A DNA stretch of 64,000 bases from Dehalococcoidia bacterium (GCA_030612025.1 JAUWOR010000001.1:135234-199233), one strand, 5' to 3'; positions 9,525-58,429 are shown, numbered from the stretch's first letter. A program made the numbers and translations. The notes: a model not told the origin generated them from the sequence alone.

Positions 9525-9663
9525 GAGGCTGTTTAATTTTGCCTCATCCGGATTCTCGTAGTGCGACCCTTTAGGGTCGTGCACGAGGCTAAAGTAGTTG
9601 CCTGATTTATCAGGCTCTTATTGCCCAATAAATTGGGCAACTACTACATTTTTAAACACCCTC
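9525..9663. mobile_element. REP-carrying MITE-like element with chimeric REP cargo
   Basis: TIR GAGGCTGTTTAA / TTAAACACCCTC; flanks GGGCT/AGGCT; family-2 REP doublet nested inside a family-1 doublet. Confidence 0.75.
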
Positions 9664-11155
9664 AGGCTGTCCTCCCTTCTTTGAGTCGCCTCCGGTCTAT
9701 TTTACCCGAGCCAGTCTTGGGTATGCTTTCTACAAGTTCAATTTTATGGGGCAACTTATAATTAGCTAAGCTTTGACGGCAAAATTCGCGTATTCCCTTC
9801 TTACTAATAGTCTGTCCTTCCTTGGGCACTACAAACAGTGTCGGGATTTGCCCTTTAAGCTCATCCATAACACCGACATATGCTGCTTCGGCAACACTGG
9901 GATGCTTTAAAAGCACATCCTCAACCTCTGTGGGGGGGATTTTGACTCCAGCCGAGGTTACTATAATAAATGATTTCTTCTCGATATAGTCTATATAGCC
10001 ATCTTCATCTATGCGGACTAAGTCGCCAGTATGAAACCAGCCGCCCTTAAGAACTTGAGCCGTGAGCTCAGGCACTTTATAATATTTCTTCATTACCTGA
10101 GGACTCCGACAAACAATTTCTCCTATTTCACCCTGGGGAACTTCCTTGCCAGCGGCATCTATTATCTTGATATCCTCAATTGGCTTACCTGCTGTCCCTA
10201 GCTTACGGTTGTGAATATCACCAAGGGTAGTAGCAATAGCCTCAGTAGTCCCGTATATCTCACAAAGGGTCAAGCCAAACTTCTCCTCCAAAGCCTTCAT
10301 AAGATGAGCCGAGGCTTTTGCCCCGGCAGTACACGCCACCCGTAAGGAACTGAGGTCATAACTCTTAAGGGTCTCATCATCTAACATGGCTAGGGCATTA
10401 TACATAGCTGGGACGCCCACCAGTATAGTTGCCTTCTCCTGCTCTACAACCTCTAAAAAATTCTTGGGAGTGAAACGAGGAAGAATTACTATAGTGGACC
10501 CTTTCATAGACGAAATAAGCCCAACAACTAACAAACCTAGGGCGTAAAAGAAGGGAATCATACCTACGGTGATATCTTCTCTCTCTTGCCCCAAACCAGG
10601 AGCCACAGTGGTAGCAGCTACCATGAGCGAACTATGAGTATGCACTACACCCTTTTGCTTCCCTAAAACACCAGAGGTGTATATGATGGCAGTCTCATCG
10701 TCATCTTTCATATCAACAACTGGTGATGTAGAAGAGCTATCAGCTATCATCTTGGTATAAGAGTCGCTATCAACTTCGATAATGTGTTTCAGTAAAGGGA
10801 TGTTGGGGAGGATCGAAAATAGCATCTCAGAAAAACTTTTTTCTGTTAGCAAGATCGTAGAATCGGAGTCACGGAGTAAGAAATCATATTCAGGCGCCTT
10901 AAGCATAGCATTAAGGATTACAGTCTTGCCTCCAGCTTTGACAACTCCAAAGTAGTTAATAAGCCACTCTGGATTATAGGACATTAAAATAGCTACATGG
11001 TCGCCTTTCTTCATCCCTAGCCCCATAAGGGCGTTGGCTATCCTATTAGAGCGTTCGTCTAATTCTTGATAACTAACTCTTTCAGGGCCAAGGACAATAG
11101 CAGTCTTCTGCGGCACCTCCCTGGCAGTTCTCTCCAGCATCTGTTTGATATTCAT
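9662..11155 (-). CDS. Long-chain acyl-CoA/AMP-dependent ligase
   Basis: IIYTSGVLGKQKGV, YGTTE, GWFHTGD, KTGSGKI. Confidence 0.9.
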   Translation of the reverse strand: MNIKQMLERTAREVPQKTAIVLGPERVSYQELDERSNRIANALMGLGMKKGDHVAILMSYNPEWLINYFGVVKAGGKTVILNAMLKAPEYDFLLRDSDSTILLTEKSFSEMLFSILPNIPLLKHIIEVDSDSYTKMIADSSSTSPVVDMKDDDETAIIYTSGVLGKQKGVVHTHSSLMVAATTVAPGLGQEREDITVGMIPFFYALGLLVVGLISSMKGSTIVILPRFTPKNFLEVVEQEKATILVGVPAMYNALAMLDDETLKSYDLSSLRVACTAGAKASAHLMKALEEKFGLTLCEIYGTTEAIATTLGDIHNRKLGTAGKPIEDIKIIDAAGKEVPQGEIGEIVCRSPQVMKKYYKVPELTAQVLKGGWFHTGDLVRIDEDGYIDYIEKKSFIIVTSAGVKIPPTEVEDVLLKHPSVAEAAYVGVMDELKGQIPTLFVVPKEGQTISKKGIREFCRQSLANYKLPHKIELVESIPKTGSGKIDRRRLKEGRTA

Positions 11156-11633
11156 TTTTCACCTCCAAAACTTCTCTTTCAATTATATAAAACTACTAGT
11201 TCTGGAGGCAATACAATTTGGGGGCTAAGGCTTTTCCATTTTGGTTGATTTGGCATATATAGCATCATCCAAGTACGGAGAATATGAAAAGGCCACAGTG
11301 GCCAAGAGAGTTAATTGTCGCGGTACAGAGTCAGCTTTGTCTACCTAGCAGTTATCATGGATGCTTTCTCCCTTAAAGCGACGGTTCCGTGTTATCTTCA
11401 CCAGTATTGACATAGAACTCACACTGAATACATATATGATATACTGGCTCTTGTGAAGAGTAGCCTACGCTATTTGTGGAGACATTCATGATTTAAAGAG
11501 GCTTCACTCGACACTAGACTACTGCTCACTAAATGAGTTTGAAGATAAATCGCTATAAAACAAAACAAGGGCCATCTTGCCGGATCGGTCAAACCCTTTT
11601 TGCCCAAACACTGGTGTGTAGTCCGACAGCTTG

Positions 11634-12584
11634 CTACCCTTGTGCTCGAGCTTCTACAAGATTCTGACCATGCTTTGGAAAGCTATCTCCCTCAACTATA
11701 GATAGCCAGCCACTGAAAGACGAGCCAATTCCAGCTTTTTCTGCCGGAGTCCAATAGTTCAAATCTTTATGGGGCTTGAAGAAGTTATAATGAACTAAGC
11801 AGCCGTTTAGCAATAACCTAGAGTTCTTTTCCTTCTTCACCTTTTGTACTAGCTTATTACCACGCATTAGAGGTTTGTTAACCTTCTTTGTCATAGCTTT
11901 GCTGGGTTTAATTATAAATCCTATATGTTGACAGCCTTCCATACCCTCTTTAAGCATCAATTCAATGTTGTTTAGATACATTTCCAGTGTGTTCGTGATA
12001 ACTCTTCGTGGAAATTTGCCAGCTTTTTCAGTTGCCTGCCACGTAAGCGCCTGGAAATTTTGCATGGTGCGTGACTGCGACATGCAGGAAGCTAACAAAA
12101 ATCTAGTCCTGGAGTCTATTATATGCCAAATCCACCACTTTTCACCTCTTATCTTTAGAGACGTTTCAGCGGCGATCCAAACATCCCCCACCTTTGGTTT
12201 GTAGGCTTTGGTTTTTTCAATAGCCACTTTAGTAAAACGAATTATCCACCTGTAGATGGTAGAGGTAGAAGGATAGTTCCTATATTGTTGTTCTATATGC
12301 CGACGAATAGCACAGATAGACCTTCTTTCGTAAAACATATTCAGAGCTGAGGCTACCTGAAATGAAGGTGTCTTCATATGAGGCAAGGCATCATTGTCAG
12401 CAAACTTTCTTCCACAGTCCTTACAAAAGTATCTTTGCAGACCTTGGTATTGCCCGTATTTCACTATGTTTTTCGAGTCACAGAGCTTGCACTTCAGATC
12501 TGTTCCGCTGTCTAAACTGCGTCTAAAAAAGCCAGTTATAGCACTATTTATTGTCATTCCTATTTCGCTACTTCTCTTAGCCAT
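11634..12584 (-). CDS. IS1/IS6-like transposase homologue with Zn ribbon; DDE triad apparently lost
   Basis: CxxC..QRYFCKDCGRKF, STIYRWI, IDSRTRFLLAS, HYNFFKPH..TPAEKAG; AET replaces DET and ITN replaces ITD. Confidence 0.75.
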   Translation of the reverse strand: MAKRSSEIGMTINSAITGFFRRSLDSGTDLKCKLCDSKNIVKYGQYQGLQRYFCKDCGRKFADNDALPHMKTPSFQVASALNMFYERRSICAIRRHIEQQYRNYPSTSTIYRWIIRFTKVAIEKTKAYKPKVGDVWIAAETSLKIRGEKWWIWHIIDSRTRFLLASCMSQSRTMQNFQALTWQATEKAGKFPRRVITNTLEMYLNNIELMLKEGMEGCQHIGFIIKPSKAMTKKVNKPLMRGNKLVQKVKKEKNSRLLLNGCLVHYNFFKPHKDLNYWTPAEKAGIGSSFSGWLSIVEGDSFPKHGQNLVEARAQG

Positions 12585-12597
12585 TAGTGCCTCTTAT

Positions 12598-12933
12598 CTA
12601 ACAACCCTTCACCGACACCCTTATTCCCACTCTATCAGCATTGCTATCGTTGATAATTAGTCCGGAATCATCCAGCGCTATACGAGTAGCCACCAGAGCA
12701 TAGTGAATAAAGGGGTCGGTTCTCCTTATCCTCTTTTTATCCAAGAAATCTTCAGGATGGAAATCTTTTATCTCAGCAGCGATTTGCGTCTTAAAACCGG
12801 TAGGGTCAAACTTGGTGATTCTCGCTACCCCTGATTTGCCCCGGCATAAAGCCTGCCATGACTGCTCAGTACCAGTTGCCAGGGGAGTAACGGCACCAAC
12901 GCCGGTAACGGCTACTCTCCTCTTATGGTTCAT
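12598..12933 (-). pseudogene. fabF: Truncated second copy of fabF (N-terminal ~105 aa)
   Basis: Near-identical to the N-terminus of 8020..9261 up to DRVGI, then diverges and stops. Confidence 0.9.
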
Positions 12934-12935
12934 TG

Positions 12936-13175
12936 TTAACTTTTTAACTCGATGTAGTTAACTGCGTCCTGGACAGTTTGTATTTTCTCCGCATCCTCGT
13001 CTGGGATTTCAATCCCGAAGGTATCTTCCGCTGCGGTAATAAACTCTATCAAATCTAAGCTATCAGCACCAAGATCATCAATAAATGAGGCTTCGGGAAC
13101 TACTTTTGTTTCCTCAACTTCCAATAGCTCTACGATTAACTTTTTTAACCTTTCAAGGATATTTCCATCACTCAC
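12936..13175 (-). CDS. acpP: Acyl carrier protein, second copy
   Basis: One amino-acid difference from 9264..9503; GTG start. Confidence 0.92.
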
Positions 13176-13196
13176 TTTTTACCTCATTTCTGGGCT

Positions 13197-13335
13197 GAGA
13201 CTGTTTAATTTTGCCTCATCCGGATTCTCGTAGTGCGACCCTTTAGGGTCGTGCTCGAGGCTAAAGTAGTTGCCTGATTTATCAGGCTCTTATTGCCCAA
13301 TAAATTGGGCAACTACTACATTTTTAAACACCCTC
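13197..13335. mobile_element. REP-carrying MITE-like element (copy of 9525-9663)
   Basis: Same TIRs and chimeric cargo; right flank TCCTA does not match left GGGCT. Confidence 0.75.
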
Positions 13336-13474
13336 TCCTAATGCTACTTCCTCCTACCACCTCCGTCAATATATCATGTCACGATGTATACCCTGTCCAA
13401 AACTGCTAGTGCATAAATGACGAAAAGGTGAACCATCCTCGTAAGTATCCGAACATTTAACTGAGCCGCTAAAA

Positions 13475-14353: not shown

Positions 14354-14434
14354 CTTCAAAATTCTCTTAGACAAAATTAGGGCACCACCCTATAAGACAG
14401 CAGCGCCCTAATCTATCTTCAGCCCACTACTTAC

Positions 14435-15601: not shown

Positions 15602-15630
15602 GTTTCACTCCTTTCATGGAAATTTAATTG

Positions 15631-18241: not shown

Positions 18242-18242
18242 A

Positions 18243-26287: not shown

Positions 26288-26740
26288 TTTATACCTCCTA
26301 AATCAGATGCTTTCCATCCTTAATTCCGGTTTTACCATCAATTACTAGAGTTGGATTTCCCATAATCCCATCCAGACGCGCTGGTGCTTTTACCTTGCCA
26401 CCAATTGTGCTGTTATCTCCTATAGCTATTTTGTCGCCTCTATCCTTGCCGCTTCTACCATTGCATCTGCCTTCAGTTTAGTTAATCACCTTATTATCTC
26501 TACCTTATAATCTCCTCTTAGCACAAGAGGCTAATTTAAACACTAACAAAATGTACTGTAAGTTGTAAAGAAAGATGGTTGAATTTTTATATTGAACTAA
26601 TTAGAGACGCCCATCATGCGATGGGCCAGCTAAATATGAAGGTAGTTAGAGGCTCCTGCGATTCTAGATAACTTAGTAGCATCGCTGTCTTCATTTAATG
26701 CCAAAAATTATAAACGCTACTCCAATTTTAGGCAAGCATA

Positions 26741-27412
26741 TTAGGCTAATAAATAAGATTTTAGCTCAGTTAAGTTGCTAATAGACTCCTGATGGTCATC
26801 CCCTGCTCTATCAATATGGAAAGCGTTTATACCCACCTGCTTGGGGTTAAGAAAATCGAATTGCCAGTTATCGCCTACATGGACAACCTGACTTGGCTTG
26901 ACATTCATCGCCTGGCACATCTGGAGATAAAAAGCGGGGGTCTTTAATTGCCTATAATGCGAGGTTGAAGAAAAAACCTGAGTAAAATAAGGTTCCACAT
27001 CCGGTAATAAATAATGCAACAGTTCCAATGGCGTGCCTGAGGCAATGATTAACTTATATTGATTAGCTAAAGAGGAAAGGACTTCTGTTACCTCAGGATA
27101 ATAGAATACTTTATCCTGGCAACTTTGTATCACTGGTTCAGGAGCGCCTAAGTGCAAATACCTAAACCAGTAGTTTATATCATACCACTCCAGCCTTTGG
27201 TCACCGATTCTATCATACTCCATAGCCACGATTTCCTTCGCCTGGACAAGCTCAATGCCTTTCTTTTGGGCATAAATGGCTGGTATAGCCTCATGCCAAA
27301 CAGCCTGACTGAAATCAGGCGTCACTAGCGTTCCTTCGGCATCAAAGGAGACTATTCTGATACACCCTGGAAAAATTCCATCTCTCAGGTGACCCCAACC
27401 AATTTGGTTCAT
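26741..27412 (-). CDS. HAD-family hydrolase (start uncertain; possible 5' frameshift near 27363)
   Basis: SFDAEGTL motif I, VHVGDNWQFD motif IV. Confidence 0.85.
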   Translation of the reverse strand: MNQIGWGHLRDGIFPGCIRIVSFDAEGTLVTPDFSQAVWHEAIPAIYAQKKGIELVQAKEIVAMEYDRIGDQRLEWYDINYWFRYLHLGAPEPVIQSCQDKVFYYPEVTEVLSSLANQYKLIIASGTPLELLHYLLPDVEPYFTQVFSSTSHYRQLKTPAFYLQMCQAMNVKPSQVVHVGDNWQFDFLNPKQVGINAFHIDRAGDDHQESISNLTELKSYLLA

Positions 27413-27699
27413 TTAAGTTGCTAATATTAGCATAATTAGAAGCCAGAGGTCTATTTGCTAACTTATGCTTAGCAAAGGTAAAATAGCTTGAGGGAGTTAT
27501 GATGAAGGGTTTTTTGAACTTAAACCGCTTCAAACATGGCAGGGCGATAAAGCAAGGTAGTAAACAAAAGGCTAATCTGCAAGGCAAGAAGAAAGTTAAA
27601 GGAAAAGTGTTTAAACTGTCACCCTGAGCGCTAGCGAAGGGTCTAGATTCTTCGCGGAGCCTGTTCTGAGCGGCGTGAGATTCTTCGCTACACTCAGAA

Positions 27700-27833
27700 G
27701 AGACCGTTTAAAAATGTAGTTGCCTGATTTATCAGGCACAGTCGCCCAATAAATTGGGCAACTACAAAAATTTGGGGGTGAAACGCCTCTGAGATGGCTG
27801 AAATTGAACGGGGAATCAAAATTAAACAGCATG
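27700..27833. mobile_element. REP-carrying MITE-like element inserted into a GTCA..CAGAATGACA-type palindrome
   Basis: TIR GAGACCGTTTAA / TTAAACAGCATG; TCAGAA on both sides. Confidence 0.75.
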
Positions 27834-27917
27834 TCAGAATGACAGGAGGCGAAGGGCTCAAAATAACAAGGCCACAGGCAAAATTAAAGAGCTTCTCAGA
27901 GGAAAGGGGTAAATTTT

Positions 27918-28277
27918 GTGGCTAAGATAGATAAGCTTAGCTTTGGCTCTATAGTTATCGATGGTAAGAAGTACTCTCAAGATGTCCTCATCTTCGCCGA
28001 TGGCATGGTAAAGAAAAGAAAGGGCGGCTTTTTAATGTTTGGCAGCCACGGTATCAAAAAAGAAGAAATCGAAGAACTGGCCGAGGATAGTCCTGAGGCA
28101 GTAATCATCGGCACTGGCACTAGCGGCAAAGCCAGTTTAGCCCCTGAGGTAGAGGACTGGGCCAAGGAAAAGAATTTGAACCTGATAGTTCAACCATCCC
28201 ACAAAGCTGTAGCCAAGCTGAATGAACTTATAGAGCAGAAGAAAAAGGTTGCCGCCTTGATTCACATAACCTGCTAG
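27918..28277 (+). CDS. Mth938-like domain protein
   Basis: FGSIVIDGKKY, VIIGTG, C-terminal AALIHITC. Confidence 0.85.
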   Translation: MAKIDKLSFGSIVIDGKKYSQDVLIFADGMVKKRKGGFLMFGSHGIKKEEIEELAEDSPEAVIIGTGTSGKASLAPEVEDWAKEKNLNLIVQPSHKAVAKLNELIEQKKKVAALIHITC

Positions 28278-28286
28278 TGGGGGGAT

Positions 28287-28613
28287 TTATTCGAATTCGC
28301 CCTTCCCCATGGCCACAAATATAACAGCTGGTACCCCTAGAAACCAGGGGCCGAAGAGGGAGCAAATACATCCGGCAAGCGCTAACCCCCAAATTTTTCT
28401 TCTCAGGGCATAAATACCGCCTACTATGGCTACTATCCCTAGTATAATTATGGGAATAGCAATAATACCAAAAATCCGAGGCATAATTGGGACAGCTGGC
28501 AGCCTTGCGATGGTTCCTCCCACTACGGCGGCTACTATGCCGCCGATCGTTTGCATGGCTCCGGCAATAATGCTCAGGATCCCTGCAGTTGTCGGTTTCC
28601 AAGTCTTCTCCAT
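28287..28613 (-). CDS. Small hypothetical membrane protein
   Basis: MEKTWKPTTAGILSIIAG; 3-4 TM; RBS present. Confidence 0.75.
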   Translation of the reverse strand: MEKTWKPTTAGILSIIAGAMQTIGGIVAAVVGGTIARLPAVPIMPRIFGIIAIPIIILGIVAIVGGIYALRRKIWGLALAGCICSLFGPWFLGVPAVIFVAMGKGEFE

Positions 28614-28636
28614 TTCTCACTCCTCCCTACTTTTTA

Positions 28637-28801
28637 GAGGCCGTTTAATTTTGCCTCATCCAGTTTTAATACTCTTCACCTCCAAGATTTTCGTAGTGCG
28701 ACCCTTTAGGGTCGTGCACGAGGCTACCCCGTGTAGTAATCTTCGCTACTACACAGGGCTAAAGCCTCGCACTACATTTTTAAACACCTTTAAACACCCT
28801 C
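28637..28801. mobile_element. REP-carrying MITE-like element with a nested 30-bp insert
   Basis: TIR GAGGCCGTTTAA / TTAAACACCCTC; perfect TSD TTTTA. Confidence 0.8.
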
Positions 28802-28971
28802 TTTTAGTAAGGATATTCTTAATAGCATCTCGTTGTCAATATCCAAGAAAACCCAGATGGCGTCGTAGCTGTGGGGTTTTAGACCTGTTCTCCGCCTAAT
28901 TACGTAGCTATGGGTCTAAAAGACCCATAGGTCGAGGCTTCAGCCCCGACCCTACGATTAGTTTATATTGT

Positions 28972-30321
28972 TCAAGGTTGAAGCTCTTTGACCATATAAG
29001 CGATTTCTAATCTATAGCCAAGTGAGCGAAAGTAATCTCTACTTCCAACGCCACTCAAAACACTCAGCTTCCCAGCAAGGAATTCCTCCCGAGCAATTCT
29101 CTCTGCTTCTCGAAGCAACTTTTCCCCTAAACCCCTGTGCTGAGCAGCCCGCTCTCGCTTTTCCCCTAAGGGGACCTCAGAACCAAAGACATGTAGCTCC
29201 CTGATTAAAGCTGAGCCAATATTGATCCTGAGCCTTAATAAGCCAAATAAGGTCTCATTGGCATCCTCGTAGGAAAGAAAAATTTCCTTCCCTCCGTAAG
29301 TTTCATAGTCCATCCTGAATAGCCAAGGCTCGCCAATCATCCAGCCATCCCTTAACCTATGCCCATATTCCCGACAGCGAATACAGCGACAATGAAGGCC
29401 CAACTCGCTCATCCGCTTCCTGACGCTCCCCCGCAACGCCAGGTCTCTGCTGCCAGCAATGATAAATTTGCTGGGGATATCCCGCATCAGCCTGGGTATT
29501 CTGACATATTTGGGAATCAGGGTTTTGATATTCACCAGTAAATCTATCATCTCCCCATCCTCATAAGGCTGGTATTTGTTATCTCGATACCATTCCTCTA
29601 GCTCACTTCCTACAACCACCAGCGTAGGGTAAAGCTTGAGCCCATCGGGTCGGAAATATTCATCAGCGAATAATTTCCGTGATAGCTCCAGGTCATGCTC
29701 CGGCGTCGAGCCAGGCAGACCAGGCATCCAATGATAGTAGACCTTAAAGCCATAATCCCTCAGTAACCTGGTGGCAGAGATGACCTCAGCTACTCCATGC
29801 CCTCTCTTCGTTAAACGGTGAATGTCATCATCCAGCGTCTGTACCCCAAGCTCCACCCTGGTAGTGCCAAAATCAAGCATACTCTTTATCTCCACCTCTC
29901 CACACCAATCAGGCCTGGTCTCAATACATAATCCCACACAGCGACGCTCAGCAGTTTCATTCATTTTCTTGGCTTCCTCTAAGTTAGCCGAAGGAACACC
30001 ATTGAGAGCATCATAGCAGTCCTTAACAAATTGATATTGATACTCACAAGGGTAAGCTAGAAAGGTGCCTCCCATGATGATGAGCTCTATTTTATCCACT
30101 GGATGTCCCATATCAGCCAATGTCCTGAGCCGGAACTCCACTTGCCTTTTGGCATCAAAGTTACATTTCCTGGCGCGAAGAACCGCCGGAGATTCTATGG
30201 TGTAGCTCTTTGGTGCTTCAGGAGAGCTGGGGCAATAAACGCATTTGCCAGGGCAGGGGAATGGCTTGGCCATAACCGCCACCGGTGTTACCCCGGAAAT
30301 AGTGCGCGATATTTTCTTCAT
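28972..30321 (-). CDS. elp3: Elp3 radical SAM/KAT tRNA U34 carboxymethyltransferase
   Basis: SGVTPVAVM, CPGKCVYCP, GGTF, ETRPDW, RVELGVQT, CIRCRE, RELHVFG, QHRGLG. Confidence 0.93.
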   Translation of the reverse strand: MKKISRTISGVTPVAVMAKPFPCPGKCVYCPSSPEAPKSYTIESPAVLRARKCNFDAKRQVEFRLRTLADMGHPVDKIELIIMGGTFLAYPCEYQYQFVKDCYDALNGVPSANLEEAKKMNETAERRCVGLCIETRPDWCGEVEIKSMLDFGTTRVELGVQTLDDDIHRLTKRGHGVAEVISATRLLRDYGFKVYYHWMPGLPGSTPEHDLELSRKLFADEYFRPDGLKLYPTLVVVGSELEEWYRDNKYQPYEDGEMIDLLVNIKTLIPKYVRIPRLMRDIPSKFIIAGSRDLALRGSVRKRMSELGLHCRCIRCREYGHRLRDGWMIGEPWLFRMDYETYGGKEIFLSYEDANETLFGLLRLRINIGSALIRELHVFGSEVPLGEKRERAAQHRGLGEKLLREAERIAREEFLAGKLSVLSGVGSRDYFRSLGYRLEIAYMVKELQP

Positions 30322-30351
30322 GCTACACTAAAGTTTAGCAGAGCTTATTCT

Positions 30352-31002
30352 ATGACCACAAATAGAGAAGTATTCGACCAAATAGCTGAAAGCTGGTATC
30401 GGGTAAGACACTGGCCCCGGTTAAGGAAAGAGCTGGAAGAACTAGCCCAAAGGTGGCAAAGGGGGGAATTGCTTAATGTTGGCTGCGCCCACGGTCCCGA
30501 CTTCCTGTCTTTCACACAGGGCTTCGGACTGTGGGGGATAGATTTCTCTTCACAAATGCTCAAGCAAGCACAGAGATATTCACTTAAATTCAATTTTTAT
30601 GTCAACCTAATAGCAGCTGATATGCTTTCGCTACCCTTCCCTGACAACACCTTCGACTGGGCAATCGCAGTGGCCGCTTATCACCACATAAAGGGCAAGA
30701 ACAACAGAGAAAAGGCATTTTGTGAATTAAAACGGGTGCTAAAACCGGGAGGCGAAGCTTTCCTGACCGTATGGAACCGGGGGCAGCCAAGGTTCTGGCT
30801 AAAATCCAAAGAGCAAGAAGTTCCCTGGAGGCTAAGAGGTAAAACCGTTTACCGCTATTACCACCTCTTCTCCTATGGCGAGTTAAAAAAACTACTCACC
30901 CAGGTTGGCTTTGAAATTATCACCATCTCTCCCGAGAGATCCTACCACTTCCCCATAAAGAACTTCTCCCGCAATATATGCATCCTGCTAAAGAAATCCT
31001 AA
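30352..31002 (+). CDS. Class I SAM methyltransferase, Trm9/ALKBH8-like
   Basis: VFDQIAESWYRVRHWP, LNVGCAHG, AIAVAAYHHI, ELKRVLKPGG..TVW, VPW, RYYHLF..GEL. Confidence 0.75.
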   Translation: MTTNREVFDQIAESWYRVRHWPRLRKELEELAQRWQRGELLNVGCAHGPDFLSFTQGFGLWGIDFSSQMLKQAQRYSLKFNFYVNLIAADMLSLPFPDNTFDWAIAVAAYHHIKGKNNREKAFCELKRVLKPGGEAFLTVWNRGQPRFWLKSKEQEVPWRLRGKTVYRYYHLFSYGELKKLLTQVGFEIITISPERSYHFPIKNFSRNICILLKKS

Positions 31003-38297: not shown

Positions 38298-38420
38298 GAG
38301 GCTATTCATTTCATTCCTCTAAGACGCATCTGTTTTCCTAACGTAGTGCGACCCTTCAGGGTCGTGCATCGCTAACCGGGCACGAGGCTAAAGCCTCGCA
38401 CTACGTTTTTGAACAGCCTC
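38298..38420. mobile_element. REP-carrying MITE-like element
   Basis: TIR GAGGCTATTCAT / TTGAACAGCCTC; flanks AATTT/AATTA. Confidence 0.65.
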
Positions 38421-38907: not shown

Positions 38908-39004
38908 CAGGCTGTTTAATTTTGCCTCATCCGGATTCTCGTAGTGCGACCCTTTAGGGTCGTGCACGAGGCTAAAGCCTCGCACTACATTTTTAAACAC
39001 CTTC
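38908..39004. mobile_element. REP-carrying MITE-like element with a minimal family-1 doublet
   Basis: CAGGCTGTTTAATTTTGCCTCATCCGGATTCTC-[REP doublet]-ATTTTTAAACACCTTC; no clear TSD. Confidence 0.7.
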
Positions 39005-39379: not shown

Positions 39380-39513
39380 TAGGCTATCTAATTTTGGTTC
39401 CCCATTCAAGTTCAGCCATCTCAGAGGTGTTTCACCCCCAAATTTTTGTAGTTGCCTGATTTATCAGGCACAGTCGCCCAATAAATTGGGCACCTACATT
39501 TTTAAACGGCCTT
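39380..39513. mobile_element. REP-carrying MITE-like element with family-2 cargo
   Basis: Shell matches 27700-27833 in the opposite orientation; TIR ..TTAAACGGCCTT. Confidence 0.7.
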
Positions 39514-49282: not shown

Positions 49283-49852
49283 TGTCATCGCAAGCCCCTC
49301 GCCTTCCTGTCATTCTGAACCTCCCCCTTGTCATTCTGAGCACTTCGGCTTCGCTCAGTATAAACTCAGCGAAGAATCTAACCTCTCATTTCCATAGGGA
49401 GATTCTTCGGTCGCTTCCCCTTCCTCTTCACTTCGTTCAGAGTCAGGGCTTCGGCTCACCCCTCAGAATGACGACGCGCAAAGGGCTCAGGGGAGGCTCC
49501 GCGTGGCAATCTCCAGGCAAAATCCCCCCTCCCTCTAACTCCCTTCCACCAGGGGAGGGAGCATCAGTATAGATTGCTTTGGATAGCAGAGGCTGTTTAA
49601 AAATGTAGTTGCCCAATTTATTGGGCGGACTGTGCCTGATAAATCAGGCAACTACAAAATTTTGGGGTGAAGCATCTCTAAAATGCCCGAAATTGAACGA
49701 TAAATCAAAATCATAGTATTCTGCATAAGTGTCTGCCCAGGTTCCTCTCCCTTGATGGGAGACCCCTCTCTACCTGCTGGAGAGGGTAGAGTGAGGCAAG
49801 GTGAGGGTGAATTTCCCCCTCCCTCTAACTCCCTCCCACCAGGGGAGGGAGG
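49283..49852. repeat. Cluster of nested palindromic repeats and a MITE shell
   Basis: GTCATTCTGA..GAAGAATCT family; CCCCCTCCCTCTAACTCCCT..GGGGAGGGAG family; MITE starting at 49589. Confidence 0.8.
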
Positions 49853-51182: not shown

Positions 51183-51209
51183 CTTGATAGCTATCTAGAG
51201 GCATTAAGG

Positions 51210-51527: not shown

Positions 51528-51880
51528 TGTAATACTTCTCGACTCAGCCCGAGATGCATCTTGGCCGAGGCGACATCATACAATTTTGCTGGCACTGCAT
51601 TGGCAGCATTGGGATAGCGAGTGGTGAGATAGTCAGGACTTAATTCAGCAGCAGCGTGAGACACATTCTCTGGTGTTCCCAGCTCCTCAGCTAGTTCTAC
51701 CAAGTCATGGGTAAACGCCACTCGTCGTTTTTCTTCCAGATACACTACCTTAAGCGCTTTCTCTGCTGCTTGCTCCGAGAAAAACACCGAGGCGTAGTAC
51801 TTTCCCACATTTATCAGCTTGTCGGCAGTATCAAGATCCTCTTGCGACTGCTCCCACAGCCTGGCACTTTCTTTACGCAT
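51500..51880 (-). CDS. HEPN domain protein
   Basis: FFSEQAAEKALK, THDLVEL, YLTTRYP. Confidence 0.88.
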   Translation of the reverse strand: MRKESARLWEQSQEDLDTADKLINVGKYYASVFFSEQAAEKALKVVYLEEKRRVAFTHDLVELAEELGTPENVSHAAAELSPDYLTTRYPNAANAVPAKLYDVASAKMHLGLSREVLQWAKKELGL

Positions 51881-52106
51881 TGCCAGAATTATAACACAGT
51901 GGCAAATTATACTAACGTCATTGTGAGCCCTTCGCTTGCTGTCATTCTGAGGGAGAGAAGCGACCGAAGAATCTCCCCTTCACTTCGTTCAGGGCTTCGG
52001 CTTACCAGGACAGGCTCCGCGTGGCAATCTCTAGTCAAAATCCCCCCTCCCTCTAACTCCCTCCCACCAGGGGAGGGAGTATCAGTATAGATTGCTTTGG
52101 ATAGCA

Positions 52107-52251
52107 GAGGCCGTTTAAAAATGTAGTTGCCCAATTTATTGGGCGGCTGTGCCTGATAAATCAGGCAACTACGAAAATTTTGGGGGTGAAGGTTACTAAA
52201 ACTAAATGAGGCAAATCTAGTTTTGAATCTGGGGCAAAATTAAACGGCCTG
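52107..52251. mobile_element. REP-carrying MITE-like element abutting the truncated GIY-YIG gene
   Basis: TIR GAGGCCGTTTAA / TTAAACGGCCTG; no TSD. Confidence 0.7.
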
Positions 52252-52469
52252 ACAACCTGAAAAGAGGTATCTACGCGCACAAAGAAAAACTGGCTAGCGG
52301 ATTTACCACAAAATACAACATTATCAAACTACTATATTATGAACTCTTCGAGGACATAGAAAATGGCATTTGGAGGGAGAAGCAAATCGAGGCTGGCTCA
52401 AGGCAAAAGAAAAATGAATTACTCGATGGTATGAACAGAGAATGGCCTGACCTGTATGAGGAACTGTAA
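52251..52469 (+). pseudogene. 5'-truncated small GIY-YIG nuclease
   Basis: DNLKRGIYAHKEKLASGFTTKYNIIKLLYYELFEDIENGIWREKQIEAGSRQKKNELLDGMNREWPDLYEEL*. Confidence 0.8.
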
Positions 52470-52527
52470 GAGATTGCTTCGGCACTCTGTGCCTCGCAAT
52501 GACACCGCACGAGGCTAAAGCCTCGCA

Positions 52528-53010
52528 CTACAAGTTACAAATGTCCTCTAATTCAAATGAGCCTGAATAAGGATAACTGCTATAATCCTCTACTAGCCCT
52601 TTCCTAACAGGGTTTCTAAAAATGTAGTGAGCTACGGCTATAGTAGCCTCATCATTTCTCAACACACGCTCATAATAATTTGGTTCCCATAGCTTCTCAC
52701 CATAAATGCCTTTAAACCAATAGCTAGTTTTTTGTTTGAGCAAGGTAATGAATCTCCTCATATCAGCAGCGCTATTTCTGCCTTCTATTAGCAAATGCAA
52801 ATGATCAGGCATAAAGCAATATGCCCAAACAGCAAAGCCTTCCTGCTCAGCCACATTCCTTAGAACTTCAACTACCTTAGTGACGACCTTGCCACGAATG
52901 AAGTGAGGTTTCAAATTATGTGAGCGTATAGTAATGAAGTATCGATAGTAGCCTTGATAGGAGAAGCTTTTCAGTCTCGATGGCTTTCTGTGTTCAACGC
53001 TTGGCTTCAT
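52528..53010 (-). CDS. REP-associated tyrosine transposase (RAYT / TnpA-REP, HUH Y1)
   Basis: RLKSFSY..YFITI, YCFMPDHLHLL (HUH), LWEPNYYERVLR, YIFRNPVRKGLV, YPYS; REPs on both sides. Confidence 0.9.
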   Translation of the reverse strand: MKPSVEHRKPSRLKSFSYQGYYRYFITIRSHNLKPHFIRGKVVTKVVEVLRNVAEQEGFAVWAYCFMPDHLHLLIEGRNSAADMRRFITLLKQKTSYWFKGIYGEKLWEPNYYERVLRNDEATIAVAHYIFRNPVRKGLVEDYSSYPYSGSFELEDICNL

Positions 53011-53041
53011 TGATAGGTAGATCGTAGCATAGCCATGACGT

Positions 53042-53200
53042 GTAGTGCGACCCTTTAGGGTCGCGCCCGGGGTTGACATCACTCGCCCCAGATGGCACGA
53101 GGCTAAAGCCTCGCACTACGGAGTTGCATATAATCTCAAACCAATCGTAGTGCGACCCTTTAGGGTCGTGCCACCGCACGAGGCTAAAGCCTCGCACTAC
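53042..53200. repeat. Two family-1 REP doublets upstream of RAYT
   Basis: GTAGTGCGACCCTTTAGGGTCG paired with GCACGAGGCTAAAGCCTCGCACTAC. Confidence 0.92.
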
Positions 53201-53303
53201 AAGCCTTGTACGACAAAGTCCGGCCTATTGACTTAAGGCTACCAAATAGCCACAATGAGAGACGGGGTGGCCCACGTTTGCCCCCTTTATTTGGTGGGGA
53301 CTT

Positions 53304-54080
53304 ATGGAGATTACTTACACAATCGTTTTTGCTTTTTTGGGATTTGCCGTGGGCAGCTTCCTCAACGTGTGCCTTGACCGCCTGCCACGAAACGAATCCA
53401 TCCTGAGCCCGCCATCACACTGCCAGGACTGCCATCATCGCTTAGCCGCTAAGGACCTTATCCCAGTATTCAGCTACCTGCAACTCCGTGGCCACTGCCG
53501 CTATTGTCAGGCTCCCATACCCAAGCGTCTCCTCTGGGTGGAGCTTGCCACCGGTGGCTTGTTCGCTTTCTTGTATGGCAACTATGGCTTGACCCCAGAG
53601 CTGGGTGTTATGGCTTTCTATACTTGCCTATTTATTATCATATTCGTGGTTGACCTGGAGCAGGGGCTTATCCTAAACAAGGTAGTTTATCCCGGGATGG
53701 CGGTAGCTTTGCTCTTTGCTTTATTCTTGCCACAGTCCTGGATTGGGCAATGGCCCGCTCCCCAGATTGCTAACGCCGCTATCGGTGGCGGCATCGGCTT
53801 CGTGCTACTCCTGCTAATAGCTATTATCTCCCGCGGGGGGATGGGATGGGGAGATGTCAAGCTGGCAGCCCTCATCGGCTTAGCCACCGGCTTCCCCCTG
53901 GTATTGGTTGCCCTGGTTATAGGAGCCATCATAGGTGGCCTGGTAGCTGTAGCCTTGTTGATAGCCAAAAAGAGAGGACGCAAGGAGGCAATACCCTTTG
54001 GTCCTTTCCTCTCCCTGGCTACTTTAGTCACCCTGCTATGGGGAAGCAGCATACTTGACTGGTACTTGGGGCTTATGTGA
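53304..54080 (+). CDS. pilD: Prepilin peptidase
   Basis: GSFLNVC, PPSHC..C, GHCRYC, VDLE, GGMGWGDVKL, IPFGPFL. Confidence 0.93.
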   Translation: MEITYTIVFAFLGFAVGSFLNVCLDRLPRNESILSPPSHCQDCHHRLAAKDLIPVFSYLQLRGHCRYCQAPIPKRLLWVELATGGLFAFLYGNYGLTPELGVMAFYTCLFIIIFVVDLEQGLILNKVVYPGMAVALLFALFLPQSWIGQWPAPQIANAAIGGGIGFVLLLLIAIISRGGMGWGDVKLAALIGLATGFPLVLVALVIGAIIGGLVAVALLIAKKRGRKEAIPFGPFLSLATLVTLLWGSSILDWYLGLM

Positions 54081-54136
54081 GAGCACTGCTTCAGAGGTAA
54101 CACTCTTCGCAATGACAAAGGCGGATATGCCATAAT

Positions 54137-54265
54137 GAGGTCGTTTAAGAATGTAGTTGCCCAATTTATTGGGCGACCGTGCCTGATAAATCAGGCAACT
54201 ACAAAAATCCGGGGGTGAATGGCTGCCAAAATCCCCCAGAACGGAAATCAAAATTAAACAACCTA
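54137..54265. mobile_element. REP-carrying MITE-like element
   Basis: TIR GAGGTCGTTTAA / TTAAACAACCTA; perfect TSD ATAAT. Confidence 0.8.
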
Positions 54266-54288
54266 ATAATTATACTAAGGGGAATAAG

Positions 54289-54642
54289 ATGGAAAAGGTA
54301 AATAATTATGTCGGCCTGAATAATAAGTATCTAAGGGAAGCTGACACCTTAGTCAGACAAGGCGATTATGTCCAGGCATCAGAGAAATTTTGGAGAGCAG
54401 CCGCTGAGATGGTCACGGCTGTAGCAGCCAAAAGAGGAATTGACCTAAGGTCTCACAGTGAACTTTACCGATTTGCCACCAAGCTCAGCCAGGAACTAAA
54501 TAATCGGGAGCTTATCAGACTCTTCGGGCTGGCTTCGGCTCTTCACCAGAACTTTTATGAGAGCTGGCTTCCTGCCGAGATGGTAATCGACTACGGCGAG
54601 GCAGTAAAAGAGCTAGTGGAGTTGCTAAGAAAGCTAGTCTAG
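54289..54642 (+). CDS. PaREP1-family (HEPN-like) protein
   Basis: GDYVQASEKFWRAA, SHSEL, ALHQNFYE. Confidence 0.8.
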   Translation: MEKVNNYVGLNNKYLREADTLVRQGDYVQASEKFWRAAAEMVTAVAAKRGIDLRSHSELYRFATKLSQELNNRELIRLFGLASALHQNFYESWLPAEMVIDYGEAVKELVELLRKLV

Positions 54643-55317
54643 TTATCTCCCTCGGAACAGGGCAAAAAAACTATCTTGATATTCCGGAAACAGCCCCCAC
54701 CTATTTAACTCTGCCACCAATTCCGGGGCATGAGAAACATCTCTCCTCACCTGGGCAAAAAGCTCCTCAATGTGATTTCGGGCATCTTTGGGCACCCCGC
54801 TGGCATCTATATTGAGAAAGCCTCTGCGGCGAAACTCAGCTACATTGGTGTGAATAGACCGGCTAGTTAGGTGATAGATAAACATAAGGAGCGATACATC
54901 CCATAATTCTTCCACTCCCTTAATTATGGCGCTCAACGGGTCAGGCTCCTCCTCTAGCTGGGCATTGAGCTTACTTATCACCTGCCTTAGAGATTCGGAG
55001 ACAACGTTCATCTCCTTAGGTTGATTCTTATAGCGGTAGAAAACGCCCGGCTCATCGGGCTGCTCTCTAGCCATAATGCTAAGGTATTTTCTCGACTCCT
55101 CGCTGAAGCCTTCCAACTTAACCAGATAAGAAGGAGTAACAATCCTTGGCCTTTCCGCGATCACCTTCCCATCCCGGACCACACTGAGATTTTCCGCCAA
55201 GCCAGTGACCACATAGTAATTCATAGTGGTGCTGCCAAAAGTAGCCAGGTGTTGCTGCGGAGGCCGGATTAGCTCAGTGTGCTCCACAGCATATCTAATT
55301 CTTTCGTCCATATTCAT
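54643..55317 (-). CDS. Hypothetical protein
   Basis: Long ORF with natural composition (LATFGST, IIKGVEELWDVSL); function not recognised. Confidence 0.75.
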   Translation of the reverse strand: MNMDERIRYAVEHTELIRPPQQHLATFGSTTMNYYVVTGLAENLSVVRDGKVIAERPRIVTPSYLVKLEGFSEESRKYLSIMAREQPDEPGVFYRYKNQPKEMNVVSESLRQVISKLNAQLEEEPDPLSAIIKGVEELWDVSLLMFIYHLTSRSIHTNVAEFRRRGFLNIDASGVPKDARNHIEELFAQVRRDVSHAPELVAELNRWGLFPEYQDSFFALFRGR

Positions 55318-55333
55318 AGCCCCAGACATTCCT

Positions 55334-55733
55334 GTAGTGCGACCCTTCAGGGTCGTGCGCTTAAGCTCGCACGAGGCTAAAGCCTCGTACTACGGACTTG
55401 CATATAATCTCAAACCTACCGTAGTGCGTCCCACATTCTCACCCTGTCGTAGTGCGACCCTTCAGGGTCGTGCCCTGTCTTAACATCACTCGCCCCAGAT
55501 GGCACGAGGCTAAAGCCTCGTACTACGGACTTGCATATGTTCTCAGCCTATCGTAGTGCGACCCTTCAGGGTCGTGCCCTGGCTTAACATCACTCGCCCC
55601 AGATGGCACGAGGCTAAAGCCTCGTACTACGGACTTGCATATAATCTCAAACCTACCGTAGTGCGTCCCACATTCTCAACCAATCGTAGTGCGACCCTTC
55701 AGGGTCGTGCACGAGGCTAAAGCCTCGTACTAC
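55334..55733. repeat. BIME/REPIN-like array of four family-1 doublets
   Basis: Repeated doublets with recurring linkers GGACTTGCATAT..CTCA and AACATCACTCGCCCCAGATG. Confidence 0.92.
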
Positions 55734-55750
55734 GTGATGACCGCTCCTGC

Positions 55751-56476
55751 CTAAATAAACATCTTGACCAGGTGGAAATTACGTGCCACCTTTTCCTTGC
55801 CAGCAATTATGCTGCCTGGCTCGGTGCTATGACCGGGAACCAGGTATTCCACATCAAGCTGAGATAGCCTGTCAATGCTCTTCCTTAATAAAGAAGGACT
55901 GCCGCCGGGAAAATCTGTCCGGCCAATGCTACCAGCAAAGACCACATCACCACTTATCAATATCTTCTCCTCCTCCAGGTAAAGGGAAATTGAACCCGGA
56001 GTATGCCCCGGGGTAAGCAAAACCTTGATAGCTAACCTATTCTTAGCACCCAGGCTCAAATCGCCTTCCCTGAGGTAGAAAAAGGGCTTGATGGCTGGTG
56101 CCTTACTCCCAAACACATCGTAGAAATGCTTCCCCATGTTACCATAAAATTCGTCCTCCTCGAGAGATAAAGTCATTAAAGCACCGCTTCTTTCCACTAC
56201 AGGCTCAACAGCCTCAAAATGGTCCGGATGACTATGAGTGCCGATTACCAAGCCCACCTCTTCTACCCTGAAGCCATCCTTCTCCATAGCTTTGGCCAAG
56301 GAATCGAAACAAGTCTCCCCAAGTTCGTCCTTGATGTGCCCCGGGTCAACCAATACGTGAGGTCGCTCTCCCCGTAAAACATGACACAAAAGGCTGGCAT
56401 TGCAGTTATTTCCCCTTCCGGCCCAGACATAGCAGTAAAAGTTCTCCGCTAACCTTACAGTTTTATGATAAATCAA
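55751..56476 (-). CDS. MBL-fold hydrolase (glyoxalase II-like)
   Basis: THSHPDH, TPGHTPGS, SGD, GRTDFPGG, PGH. Confidence 0.88.
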   Translation of the reverse strand: MIYHKTVRLAENFYCYVWAGRGNNCNASLLCHVLRGERPHVLVDPGHIKDELGETCFDSLAKAMEKDGFRVEEVGLVIGTHSHPDHFEAVEPVVERSGALMTLSLEEDEFYGNMGKHFYDVFGSKAPAIKPFFYLREGDLSLGAKNRLAIKVLLTPGHTPGSISLYLEEEKILISGDVVFAGSIGRTDFPGGSPSLLRKSIDRLSQLDVEYLVPGHSTEPGSIIAGKEKVARNFHLVKMFI

Positions 56477-56503
56477 AATTTTAACCTCCTCTACCTCGCA
56501 AGC

Positions 56504-56660
56504 GTAGTGCGACCCACATTCTCAACCAATTGTAGTGCGACCCTTCAGGGTCGTGCCCACCGCACGAGGCTAAAGCCTCGTACTACGGAGTTGCATATGT
56601 TCTCAACCAAGTGTAGTGCGACCCTTCAGGGTCGTGCACGAGGCTAAAGCCTCGCACTAC
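56504..56660. repeat. Family-1 REP array
   Basis: Two doublets plus a half-REP, same linkers. Confidence 0.9.
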
Positions 56661-56772
56661 AAAGTAAAGGGCAAGGTGGTGAGGGCAGCCATCCTTTGAC
56701 CCTTTCAATATTATAAGCTAAAATGCCGTCTAAATGAAATTCAAAGACGAATTCAAGAGGCGTGTTTATAGT

Positions 56773-56949
56773 GAGAGTGTTTAGAAATGTAGTTGCCCAA
56801 TTTATTGGGCTATTGTGCCTGATGAATCAGGCAACTTTGGCCCTCCATTCATTAAGGCCTGATTCACATCAGGCAACTACGAAAATTTGGGGGTGGAAGC
56901 ATCTCCAAAATGCCCAAAATTGAACAAGAAATCAAAATTATACAGCCTA
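56773..56949. mobile_element. REP-carrying MITE-like element
   Basis: TIR GAGAGTGTTTAG / TTATACAGCCTA; flanks ATAGT/ATAAT. Confidence 0.7.
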
Positions 56950-56968
56950 ATAATGACAGGGGAGTCAA

Positions 56969-57544
56969 ATGGGTAAGCTAAAGAGCGCCTGGGAAATTGC
57001 CCAAGAAAAAGCTGACAGGCTGGGCAAGCTATCGCCTGCGGAAATGCAGCGGCAAAGGGAGCAAGAATGCCGTCAGATTGGCCGGGCAATAGCCCAAAGA
57101 TATCTTGATAATCCCGAGCCGCTAAGTTTAGCCATAGAGCTAAACAAGTACCAAGAGAAAAAAGACCTGGTGCGACAAGCAACCCTAACTCACCTGACAC
57201 AAGCTATCGATTTAAGATTCCTCACTTCGTTCGGAATGACAAGCAAGCCGGAGAGAATTATCCAGGGAATAGCCACTGTCGAGCCGAAATCACAGTCAAT
57301 CATAGAACGAATAAGGGGGCTAGCCCAAGAATATGAGCCGCTGGCAGATAAGACAAGGCGAGCCATAGAAATCAAATGTCGGGAAACCTTGCATCAACTG
57401 AGAATCTCAGGAACAGCGGTGGGCAATATCAATATCGAGGCCACACCTCAGTGGCAACAAAGCTGGCACCTATTAACCGAACCTCTTGAACCAAGGCTTG
57501 ATAGCCTCAAACAGGAGCTAATTAATAGCATTTCCTCAGGTTAG
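56969..57544 (+). CDS. Hypothetical helical protein
   Basis: MGKLKSAWEIAQEK..LRISGTAV..NIEATPQW; RBS GGGGAG. Confidence 0.75.
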   Translation: MGKLKSAWEIAQEKADRLGKLSPAEMQRQREQECRQIGRAIAQRYLDNPEPLSLAIELNKYQEKKDLVRQATLTHLTQAIDLRFLTSFGMTSKPERIIQGIATVEPKSQSIIERIRGLAQEYEPLADKTRRAIEIKCRETLHQLRISGTAVGNINIEATPQWQQSWHLLTEPLEPRLDSLKQELINSISSG

Positions 57545-57604
57545 CCTCCGCTAGCAATCCCTCCGTCATATAGACATAGTATTGCTTATCCATGGCTACA
57601 TTAT

Positions 57605-58171
57605 GAAGGTGTTTGAAAATGTAGTTGCCCAATTTATTGGGCGACTGTGCCTGATAAATCAGGCAACTACACGGGGTAGCCTCGTACACGACATGAGGGT
57701 GTTTGAAAATGTGGCACGAGGCTTTAGCCTCGTGCACGCCCCTGAAGGGTCGCACTACGATTGGTTGAGAACATGTGGAACTCCGTAGTGCGAGGCTTTA
57801 GCCTCGTGCACAACCCGAGGGTGTTTGAAAATGTAGTTGCCCAATTTATTGGGCGGCTGTGCCTGATAAATCAGGCAACTACAAAATTTTGGGGGTGGGG
57901 TCGCACTACGATGGTTTGAGATTATATGCAACTCCGTAGTGCGAGGCTTTAGCCTCGTGCCATCTGGGGCGAGTGATGTCAACCCCGGGCACGACCCTGA
58001 AGGGTCGCACTACGATTGGTTGAGAATGTGGGACGCATTACGGTAGGGTGAGAACATATGCAACTCTGTAGTGCGAGGCTTTAGCCTCGTGCACGACCCT
58101 GAAGGGTCGCACTACAAGAACCCGGATGAGGCAAACCTAACTTTGAATCTGCGGGAAAATTAGACCGCCTC
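57605..58171. mobile_element. Expanded composite MITE (567 bp) filled with family-1 and family-2 REP doublets
   Basis: TIR GAAGGTGTTTGA / TTAGACCGCCTC; perfect TSD ATTAT; extra internal TIR ends. Confidence 0.75.
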
Positions 58172-58295
58172 ATTATACTAGAGATCGCGGAGCTTGTTCC
58201 GAGCCTAAGCGAGGAATCTCGCTCCTCGTAATAACCTGCCCAGATAGATTTGCATTTTACGCCAGATGTGCTAAACTAAAGTAAGAGGACATAAG

Positions 58296-58429
58296 GAGGG
58301 TATTTGGAAATGTAGTTGCCCAATTTATTGGGCAGCTCTGCCTGATGAATCAGGCAACTACAGAATTTGGCGGCAAAGGATTTCCAAAAATACCCGAAAT
58401 TGAACGAGCAATCAAAATTAAACAGCCTC
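58296..58429. mobile_element. REP-carrying MITE-like element in the response-regulator leader
   Basis: TIR GAGGGTATTTGG / TTAAACAGCCTC; flanks ATAAG/TTAAG. Confidence 0.75.

Follow-up and report, generated by a model that had tools for sequence, protein, structure and literature searches.

The 64,000-nt window analysed here (JAUWOR010000001.1:135234-199233 of assembly GCA_030612025.1, from a Dehalococcoidia bacterium; G000:C4:135234-199233 in our coordinates) belongs to a 1.4-Mb genome that is distributed over 19 contigs and is 95.6% complete. Between positions 9525 and 59928, counted from its first letter, the window carries a series of short repeated elements. In these, a shell with terminal inverted repeats (TIRs) encloses pairs of GTAG-tagged repetitive extragenic palindromic (REP) sequences, and a gene for a REP-associated tyrosine transposase (RAYT) lies among them at 52528-53013 on the minus strand. 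REPs and MITEs (miniature transposable elements with inverted repeats) are textbook examples of separate small bacterial repeats, which are served by HUH tyrosine and DDE transposases, respectively. Here, the two systems are physically fused and amplified together, and a candidate full-size parent of the shell can now be named.

The 12-nt end GAGGCTGTTTAA was matched 31 times in the window at no more than two mismatches, against 6.98 matches expected, and none of 100 shuffles reached this number. The consensus strings of REP 1a and REP 2a were found 19 and 12 times, respectively, where none was expected. Genome-wide, REP types 1a, 1b, 2a, and 2b are each present in 67-69 copies, which consist of the GTAG tag followed by a palindrome. 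Ends and REPs were mapped as tokens along the genome, which defined the recurrent builds and 50 two-ended elements. The canonical family-2 build spans 134 bp and comprises an end, a 56-nt arm, REP 2b, 6 nt, an inverted REP 2a, 4 nt, and an inverted end. The canonical family-1 build comprises an end, an arm of 67, 44, or 21 nt, REP 1a, 4 nt, an inverted REP 1b, 4 nt, and an inverted end, giving totals of 143, 120, or 97 bp, respectively. Both arm types have ~20 nt next to GTAG in common and share the same right end. The maps bear out two features of the original prediction, which was made from the window sequence alone, namely a 4-nt spacer between one end and GTAG and a cargo that is family 1, family 2, or both.

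The same prediction had listed 13 elements with common TIRs. Eleven of these sites hold complete, two-ended elements of 97-177 bp (9525, 13197, 27700, 28637, 38298, 38908, 39380, 52107, 54137, 56773, and 58296), while 49589 lacks a second end and 57605 is a cluster fragment. Among the complete elements, those at 39380-39513 (plus strand; left end with three mismatches) and 58296-58429 (minus strand) are family-2 elements of 134 bp, and that at 56773-56949 (minus strand) is a 177-bp family-2 element with an extra 2b-like hairpin. The element at 38298-38420 (plus strand) is a diverged family-1 element of 123 bp, whose left end also has three mismatches, and the one at 38908-39004 (plus strand) is a short-arm family-1 element of 97 bp with orthologous copies in genomes G201 and G203. 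The truncated family-2 element at 49589-49715 (minus strand) retains one good end, the doublet, and the arm, its second end not being recognizable. The stretch at 57605-58171 does not form one two-ended element; pieces of elements are mixed there with doublets of families 1 and 2 in a complex cluster, and the end at 57605 has no partner within it that could flank the predicted ATTAT duplication. More REP doublets and one element fragment follow at 59273-59928.

Mobility of the shell was assessed from target-site duplications (TSDs). Perfect direct repeats of at least 5 bp abut 19 of the 50 elements (13 of 5 bp, five of 6 bp, and one of 8 bp), compared with 0.9% of 2450 controls in which left and right flanks from different elements were paired. 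An exact 5-mer match between the flanks was present in 13 elements (0.45% of the cross-paired flanks) and a match at four or more of the five positions in 21 (5.0%). When the element boundaries were slid by 1-3 nt, the TSD count fell to six or fewer. The duplicated repeats vary from copy to copy and consist of 84% A+T. Matches were thus far above chance, which was the check proposed together with the original prediction, and three of the TSDs it had named are correct. These are TTTTA at the 165-bp family-1 element at 28637-28801 (plus strand), ATAAT at the 129-bp family-2 element at 54137-54265 (minus strand), and the 6-bp TCAGAA at the 134-bp family-2 element at 27700-27833 (minus strand), along with matches at four of five positions at 9525, 38298, 56773, and 58296.

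Empty orthologous sites, which had likewise been proposed as a check, were found for two of these elements. At 54137, the flanks in G203, a genome of the same genus, are 97% identical and hold a single ATAAT without the element, which is also missing in G201 and G202. The site of 27700 lacks the element in both G203 and G201. In addition, a contig from metagenomic run X10 spans the 27700 region without the element, though the differences extend beyond the element alone. The data from this run and from X5, X11, and X12 are DNA contigs, in which most joints inside elements stem from other repeat copies and are uninformative on this region.

A full-size relative of the shell was sought by scanning the 17-nt left end across one genome per species (596 Gb). 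At least 108 stretches matched, of which 80 were listed; 36 of the 80 matches listed are in Chloroflexi or Dehalococcoidia records. Because ~69 matches to a 17-mer are expected by chance in 596 Gb according to our arithmetic, the matches outside Chloroflexi were treated as chance, and four at contig ends of a Limosilactobacillus record were ruled out as an insertion sequence (IS), as they correspond to a terminator-like hairpin. Among the matches listed, six from Dehalococcoidia begin with subterminal sequence of a third kind, which in three cases continues into an open reading frame (ORF). The element at locus L069 is 1613 bp long and has a left end identical in 17/17 nt, an inverted right end, and an ORF of 422 amino acids. 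An element with the same ends in G149, a genome of the same order, is 1582 bp long, matches the left end in 16/17 nt, and carries an open copy of 417 amino acids that is 78% identical. The L069 protein scores above the Pfam cut-offs for DDE_Tnp_1 (69.5 bits), DUF772 (47.1 bits), and DDE_Tnp_1_6 (27.5 bits). Its best NCBIfam match by far is the IS1182 family transposase at 220.7 bits (cut-off 270, not reached), and IS5 models come next. G018 and L111 contain derivatives with internal deletions, 1209, 554, and 550 bp long, and homologues of the transposase (E ≤ 1e-20) are present in 10 of the 201 genomes sampled from the class.

The small elements have kept from this IS the 17-nt left end, a CACCCCCA box ~60-80 nt in, and ~16 nt of the right end. 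No GTAG REP is found inside the full IS, so that the doublet is regarded as an addition. Judged by sequence, the small element would accordingly read as the left end of the IS, a REP doublet, and the right end of the IS. These similarities support a classification of the elements as MITEs of 97-180 bp, which would derive from a DDE insertion sequence of IS1182/IS5-like type, intact copies of which survive in other Dehalococcoidia. The guess that the shell is of DDE type and belongs to an IS5/IS1182-like enzyme is in line with L069 and G149, where the same ends bound a DDE transposase with IS1182 as its best NCBIfam match. Other candidates for an autonomous IS were rejected. End pairs 400-5000 bp apart in the host genome all turned out to be neighbouring MITEs, and matches of PF01609, PF00665, PF13359, and PF00872 in this genome and four genomes of the same genus had no matching ends. 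An IS6-like transposase gene in the window (11634-12584) was discarded as partner on account of its other ends.

Turning to the core of the elements, the genome has two Y1_Tnp genes. The product of the window gene (52528-53013, minus strand) has HUH and YY motifs, scores 95.8 bits on the NCBI model REP_Tyr_transpos (cut-off 80), and has E. coli TnpA-REP (4er8) as best match in the PDB. The gene is flanked by family-1 REPs (52510-53200), with one REP downstream (52510-52531) and two doublets upstream (53042-53200). The second protein, encoded on contig C18, scores 69.7 bits on the same model, below its cut-off of 80, has HUH-like and YY motifs, and is 31% identical to the window RAYT. Its gene is flanked by family-2 doublets, which are tandemly repeated along with the 16-nt right-end sequence. 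Doublets, with the two REPs in inverted orientation, number 117 genome-wide and are predicted to fold as one long hairpin or two small ones. Those scored without shell parts amount to 29/58 of family 1 and 8/59 of family 2. Beside the RAYT gene, 13 shell-less family-1 doublets occur at 53042-59928. Within this span, a tandem array of four doublets occupies 55334-55733 (plus strand), where the orthologous site holds one doublet in G203 and none in G201 or G202, and two further doublets lie at 56532-56658 (plus strand). The two families of the core flank the two RAYT loci of the genome, which supports its REP identity and its interpretation as a separate module of the REP/RAYT system. The RAYT arm of the two-enzyme system originally proposed is represented by two genes, each flanked by one REP family, with cargo exchange as their putative role. 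Of note, a homologue of the window RAYT gene in G203 (G203:C114:7001-7427; 74.8% DNA identity with window 52539-52965) sits elsewhere, between regions syntenic with window 30997 and 31534, which implies movement or replacement of the RAYT cassette itself.

The repetition of the right-end sequence next to the C18 RAYT gene could be taken to mean that the whole element, including its ends, is a REP composite akin to the bacterial interspersed mosaic elements (BIMEs), which would be moved by RAYT, with terminal repeats belonging to the REP unit and no DDE enzyme. This is very improbable. Transposition of the single-strand IS200/IS605 type is not known to give 5-bp duplications of variable sequence such as those found here. 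Moreover, a DDE-transposase gene lies between these same ends in L069 and G149, and the RAYT gene of the window is flanked by REPs that lack these ends. A precedent for such composites is provided by the available text of PMC3733652, in which TIR-flanked RAYT-like genes and GTAG units joined to other stem-loops are known, and the relation of RAYTs to the IS200/IS605 family is stated in that of PMC3116915.

The insertion sites were then compared relative to ribosome-binding sites. GGAGG is found within 25 nt outward of the left end in 29/50 elements and of the right end in 1/50, and the flank beyond the left end almost always carries its reverse complement. In the flank profile after the element, G occupies position 12 in 33/50, A position 13 in 27/50, G position 14 in 33/50, and G position 15 in 40/50. 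ORFs of at least 60 amino acids start within 60 nt of 34 elements on the left-end side and of six on the right-end side. The resulting layout consists of the duplicated 5-mer, 5 nt, and GGAGG, with the element ending ~10 nt from the ribosome-binding site and its left end facing the gene. The IS-type copies L062, L103, L111, L069, and G149, as well as two G018 derivatives, have the same GGAGG arrangement on the same side. As the full IS sits likewise, the placement is attributed to target choice by the transposase, which would select a site near GGAGG. A few sites, 27700 among them, have GGAGG but lack a start codon at a workable distance from it, which favours DNA recognition over selection for function. 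A palindromic target, as used by IS1272, was rejected, since the palindromy of rebuilt empty sites did not exceed that of 350 controls located upstream of GGAGG (mean 4.37 vs 4.17). They are more AT-rich than the same controls (84% vs 60%).

A fixed place and a single orientation, ~10 nt upstream of the ribosome-binding site, together with very stable predicted folds (z-scores of -5.3 to -8.8), would also be expected of conserved 5'-leader RNA structures that regulate downstream genes and are not mobile DNA. We consider that the chances of this are slim. It is at odds with the TSDs and with the precise presence or absence of elements at orthologous sites within the genus, where the empty sites contradict it directly. 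Furthermore, the downstream genes are unrelated, some of the GGAGG motifs have no usable start codon, and the full-size IS uses the same kind of site.

The doublets had been described as swappable in the original prediction, and comparison of shell and cargo bears this out in part. In 44 of the 50 elements, the arm is of the type that matches the cargo family (arm 2 with family 2 in 25, arm 1 with family 1 in 19), which means that swapping is rare in this genome. Congruence is thus predominant and not complete, with six mixed elements. One of these is a clean swap, the 145-bp hybrid at 52107-52251 (minus strand), which joins a family-1-type arm to a family-2 doublet and lies 277 nt from the RAYT gene. 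Three are chimeras (9525, its duplicate at 13197, and C6:7801), where 9 nt of REP 1b have given way to an exact GTAG...CTAC unit of family 2, and two are composites. The 139-bp chimera at 9525-9663 (plus strand) comprises a short family-1 arm, REP 1a, and the whole family-2 doublet. Its copy at 13197-13335 (plus strand) is part of a segmental duplication that spans an acyl-carrier-protein (ACP) gene and the element, so that the pair represents a single event and not two separate insertions. Among the congruent elements, the doublet is flipped relative to the shell at C4:125550, C14:646, and 27700.

A third hairpin of 32 nt, termed F3, occurs in 16 copies, of which 13 are in the REP 1b loop, one is in an arm, one replaces the tip of REP 2a, and one is in a variant junction. 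The element at 28637 carries F3 nested in its REP 1b loop, and its ortholog in G203 has the same TTTTA duplication, no F3, and a longer arm. Small dispersed repeats nested in other repeats were reportedly described in Nostoc by Elhai and colleagues in 2008; their likeness to F3, likewise a tiny hairpin placed in loops of other repeats, is a lead only, and both organism and sequence differ. In other genomes, arm-2-type shells enclose family 2 (L087), family 1 (L071), three further GTAG families, namely a GCAGACC family (L101), a GCTCCGAT family (L060), and a GCCCCGAC REP (L122), and a non-GTAG hairpin (L063). The same type of shell thus holds at least five REP families elsewhere, a comparison of arm and cargo that rests on the first 90 nt of the listed loci and on selected full loci. 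A GCAGGTC REP related to the GCAGACC family flanks a RAYT gene in G135. The 56773 locus of G202 was considered as a case of different cargo at one orthologous site and was dropped, as its flanks are rearranged and orthology is not callable. Overall, cargo exchange happens but is rare within this genome.

We propose that, in the small elements, the transposase gene was replaced by a doublet of two GTAG-tagged REP hairpins resembling a REP doublet forming hairpins (REPIN). The DDE transposase would act in trans on the shell and duplicate an AT-rich 5-mer that lies 5 nt upstream of GGAGG, which would leave a distance of 10 nt between the element and the ribosome-binding site, the left end facing the gene. 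Doublets inside shells are now and then flipped, replaced, or invaded by a third hairpin. According to this proposal, to which we assign a probability of about 0.6, REP doublets reach new loci by way of the MITE, and their exchanges are explained by single-strand cutting of the RAYT type at the boundaries marked by GTAG/CTAC. It starts from what is directly seen, i.e. anatomy, TSDs, empty sites, an autonomous relative, the linkage between RAYT genes and REPs, and placement near GGAGG, and from these we infer mobilization of the shell in trans, target choice by the transposase, and RAYT as the agent of cargo change.

Several observations weigh against this proposal. As regards the shell, the middles of the arms, i.e. 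outside the ends and the CACCCCCA box, have no significant similarity to the left end of the IS (83/500 and 39/500 shuffles reach the score). The autonomous IS with the same ends that had been predicted as a partner was located in other Dehalococcoidia but not in the host genome or the four genomes of the same genus, all draft assemblies, by a transposase protein search and a PF01609 search. Element-bearing genomes make up 9 of the 201 sampled from the class, and only G149 among them has a close homologue of the transposase. Also, none of five copies of the IS or its derivatives examined (0/5) has a perfect TSD. As regards placement, the strand opposite the gene reads as a doublet followed by a run of T, reminiscent of a terminator, and a co-directional gene lies upstream of 40/50 elements; the fixed orientation could come from selection instead of targeting. 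As regards the cargo, the prevailing congruence of arm and doublet counts here too. The 52107 swap can be explained by recombination in the ~20 nt near GTAG common to both arm types, and swap and flips alike need no RAYT, since recombination between short sequences that are shared or inverted can produce them. In G149, whose elements carry family-1-like cargo, the only Y1_Tnp gene has no family-1-like REPs within ~1.5 kb, and no Y1_Tnp match was found in G208 (82% complete) and G054 (98% complete), both of which have elements or their REPs.

Part of this evidence would suit the same IS-derived MITE without any role for RAYT. Two subfamilies would have fixed their hairpin cores long ago, and the mixed, flipped, and nested forms would result from homologous recombination, gene conversion, and template switching at hairpins during replication. 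RAYT genes would then merely share ancestry with the REPs or act solely on shell-less ones. The congruent majority, the Y1_Tnp gene of G149 without flanking REPs, and the two genomes without a Y1_Tnp match all fit this possibility. So do the ~20 nt before GTAG and the identical right end, which suffice for recombination, and the 8-9-bp inverted repeats that border the flips. However, the chimeras at 9525 and C6:7801 hold the exact GTAG...CTAC unit inside REP 1b with no junction sequence in common, and across genomes one and the same slot in this type of shell is filled by at least five REP families, neither of which is readily accommodated. Y1_Tnp genes are, moreover, present in 8/9 element-bearing genomes against 48/192 others, which is weak evidence and not an independent test, given the relatedness of the genomes and the presence of REPs in the query. 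Taken together, we regard a scheme without RAYT as a possible but doubtful account, and retain the proposal that RAYT-type cutting exchanges the cargo of a DDE-mobilized shell.

A more extended and tentative version of the latter involves three parties. An IS1182-like transposase would use GGAGG-containing DNA as a landmark, the MITE would be the vehicle that spreads REP doublets within the genome and between lineages, and a resident RAYT would reload the vehicle with its own REP family at GTAG/CTAC. Otherwise, REP doublets are regarded as bound to a RAYT that is passed on vertically. If true, this arrangement would constitute a new dispersal route for REPINs and a transposon whose target is the signal for translation start. 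A DDE enzyme that picks a site 10 nt upstream of GGAGG would by itself be unusual, as few transposons are directed at a translation signal, and reloading of the shell by RAYT would provide a handle on how REPINs move. For annotation, dozens of genes in small Dehalococcoidia genomes have such elements in their leaders, where they may be mistaken for riboswitches or leaders.

Additional observations concern the surroundings and variants of the elements. The IS6-like transposase gene at 11634-12584 (minus strand; DDE_Tnp_IS240, 38.2 bits) adjoins a truncated ketoacyl-synthase (KS) fragment and a second ACP gene (12598-12933 and 12939-13178). The regions at 8020-9506 and 11634-13178 look like a segmental duplication of KS-ACP and the mini-element, associated with the IS6-like element. 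Three elements, two in the window (flanks at 49562-49588 and 52080-52106) and one near G000:C12 162138, have in common an upstream flank of ~25 nt that ends in ...TTGGATAGCA, and several elements have a common downstream leader, ATAGCAACAAAGGAGG..., which precedes a small repeated ORF. Judging from such common flanks and leaders, some copies may have spread by duplication of a larger unit. A family-2 variant with an extra AT-rich insert of ~190 nt in the arm, i.e. a further layer of nesting, is found at L005 139-395 (G000:C18:17938-18194), in G202 at the 56773 locus, and in L108. Composites at G000:C8:30603-30822 and 32208-32443 consist of a family-2 element that passes directly into a short family-1 element, the ends at which they abut being absent. 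Such a remnant would be expected after insertion of one element beside another's end and subsequent deletion of the palindromic junction.

A separate family of short repeats, whose units contain inverted pieces similar to GTCATTCTGAGC / GCTCAGGGTGACAG, is present at window 27638-27699 and, in G201 and G202, around the 55334 locus, and fills variable intergenic spots in the genus. In metagenomic runs X5, X10, X11, and X12, the summed contig depth at window 26500-30500 was 10-100x higher over element bins than over the flanks (22470 vs ~300 in X5). These metagenomes, from cold seeps and marine sediments, therefore contain the repeat family of the elements in very high abundance.

As to known systems, the architecture is real, and a literature search that did not extend to supplements retrieved no published description of a MITE with a REP core or of insertion at ribosome-binding sites, consistent with the original prediction, whose author knew of none for this architecture. 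In Pseudomonas putida and P. fluorescens, composite terminal repeats made of degenerate GTAG-1 units and unrelated stem-loops flank RAYT genes, and 'TIRYT' genes are described alongside them in the available text of PMC3733652. These composites resemble the present elements in that a second repeated module is joined to GTAG REPs and the two are amplified together, whereas the main text of that report contains neither 'target site' nor 'duplication' and no tie to a DDE insertion sequence. The background section of the same paper covers classical MITEs (NEMIS/Correia, ERIC, RUP, and Nezha), which are likewise short, non-coding, strongly folded elements with TIRs that lie beside genes and are IS-derived and IS-dependent. 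In contrast to these, the core is here a REP doublet of a second transposase system, and insertion is fixed ~10 nt from the ribosome-binding site in one orientation.

The full-size IS shares the transposase domains DUF772, DDE_Tnp_1, and DDE_Tnp_1_6 and the best NCBIfam match with the IS1182 family, e.g. staphylococcal IS1272, whose members are reported in the available text of PMC5678879 to interact with palindromic DNA. According to the same text, IS1272 replaces a target stem-loop and leaves no TSD. The elements studied here differ from it by a 5-bp TSD, an AT-rich target without excess palindromy, and a position fixed relative to GGAGG, and the family score of the parent candidate (220.7) stays below the NCBI cut-off (270). 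Finally, the core compares with the REPINs and RAYTs of P. fluorescens SBW25, as presented in the available text of PMC3116915, and with the E. coli TnpA-REP/BIME system (PDB 4er8), which have the same inverted pairs of GTAG palindromes folding as one long or two small hairpins. Common to both REPIN/RAYT systems and the present genome are also a single-copy RAYT gene flanked by its own REP family and shell-less doublets in tandem arrays. Unlike in those systems, most doublets here reside inside a shell with DDE-type TIRs and 5-bp target duplications, the two REPs of a doublet differ in their stems, and dispersal to new loci appears to be tied to the shell.

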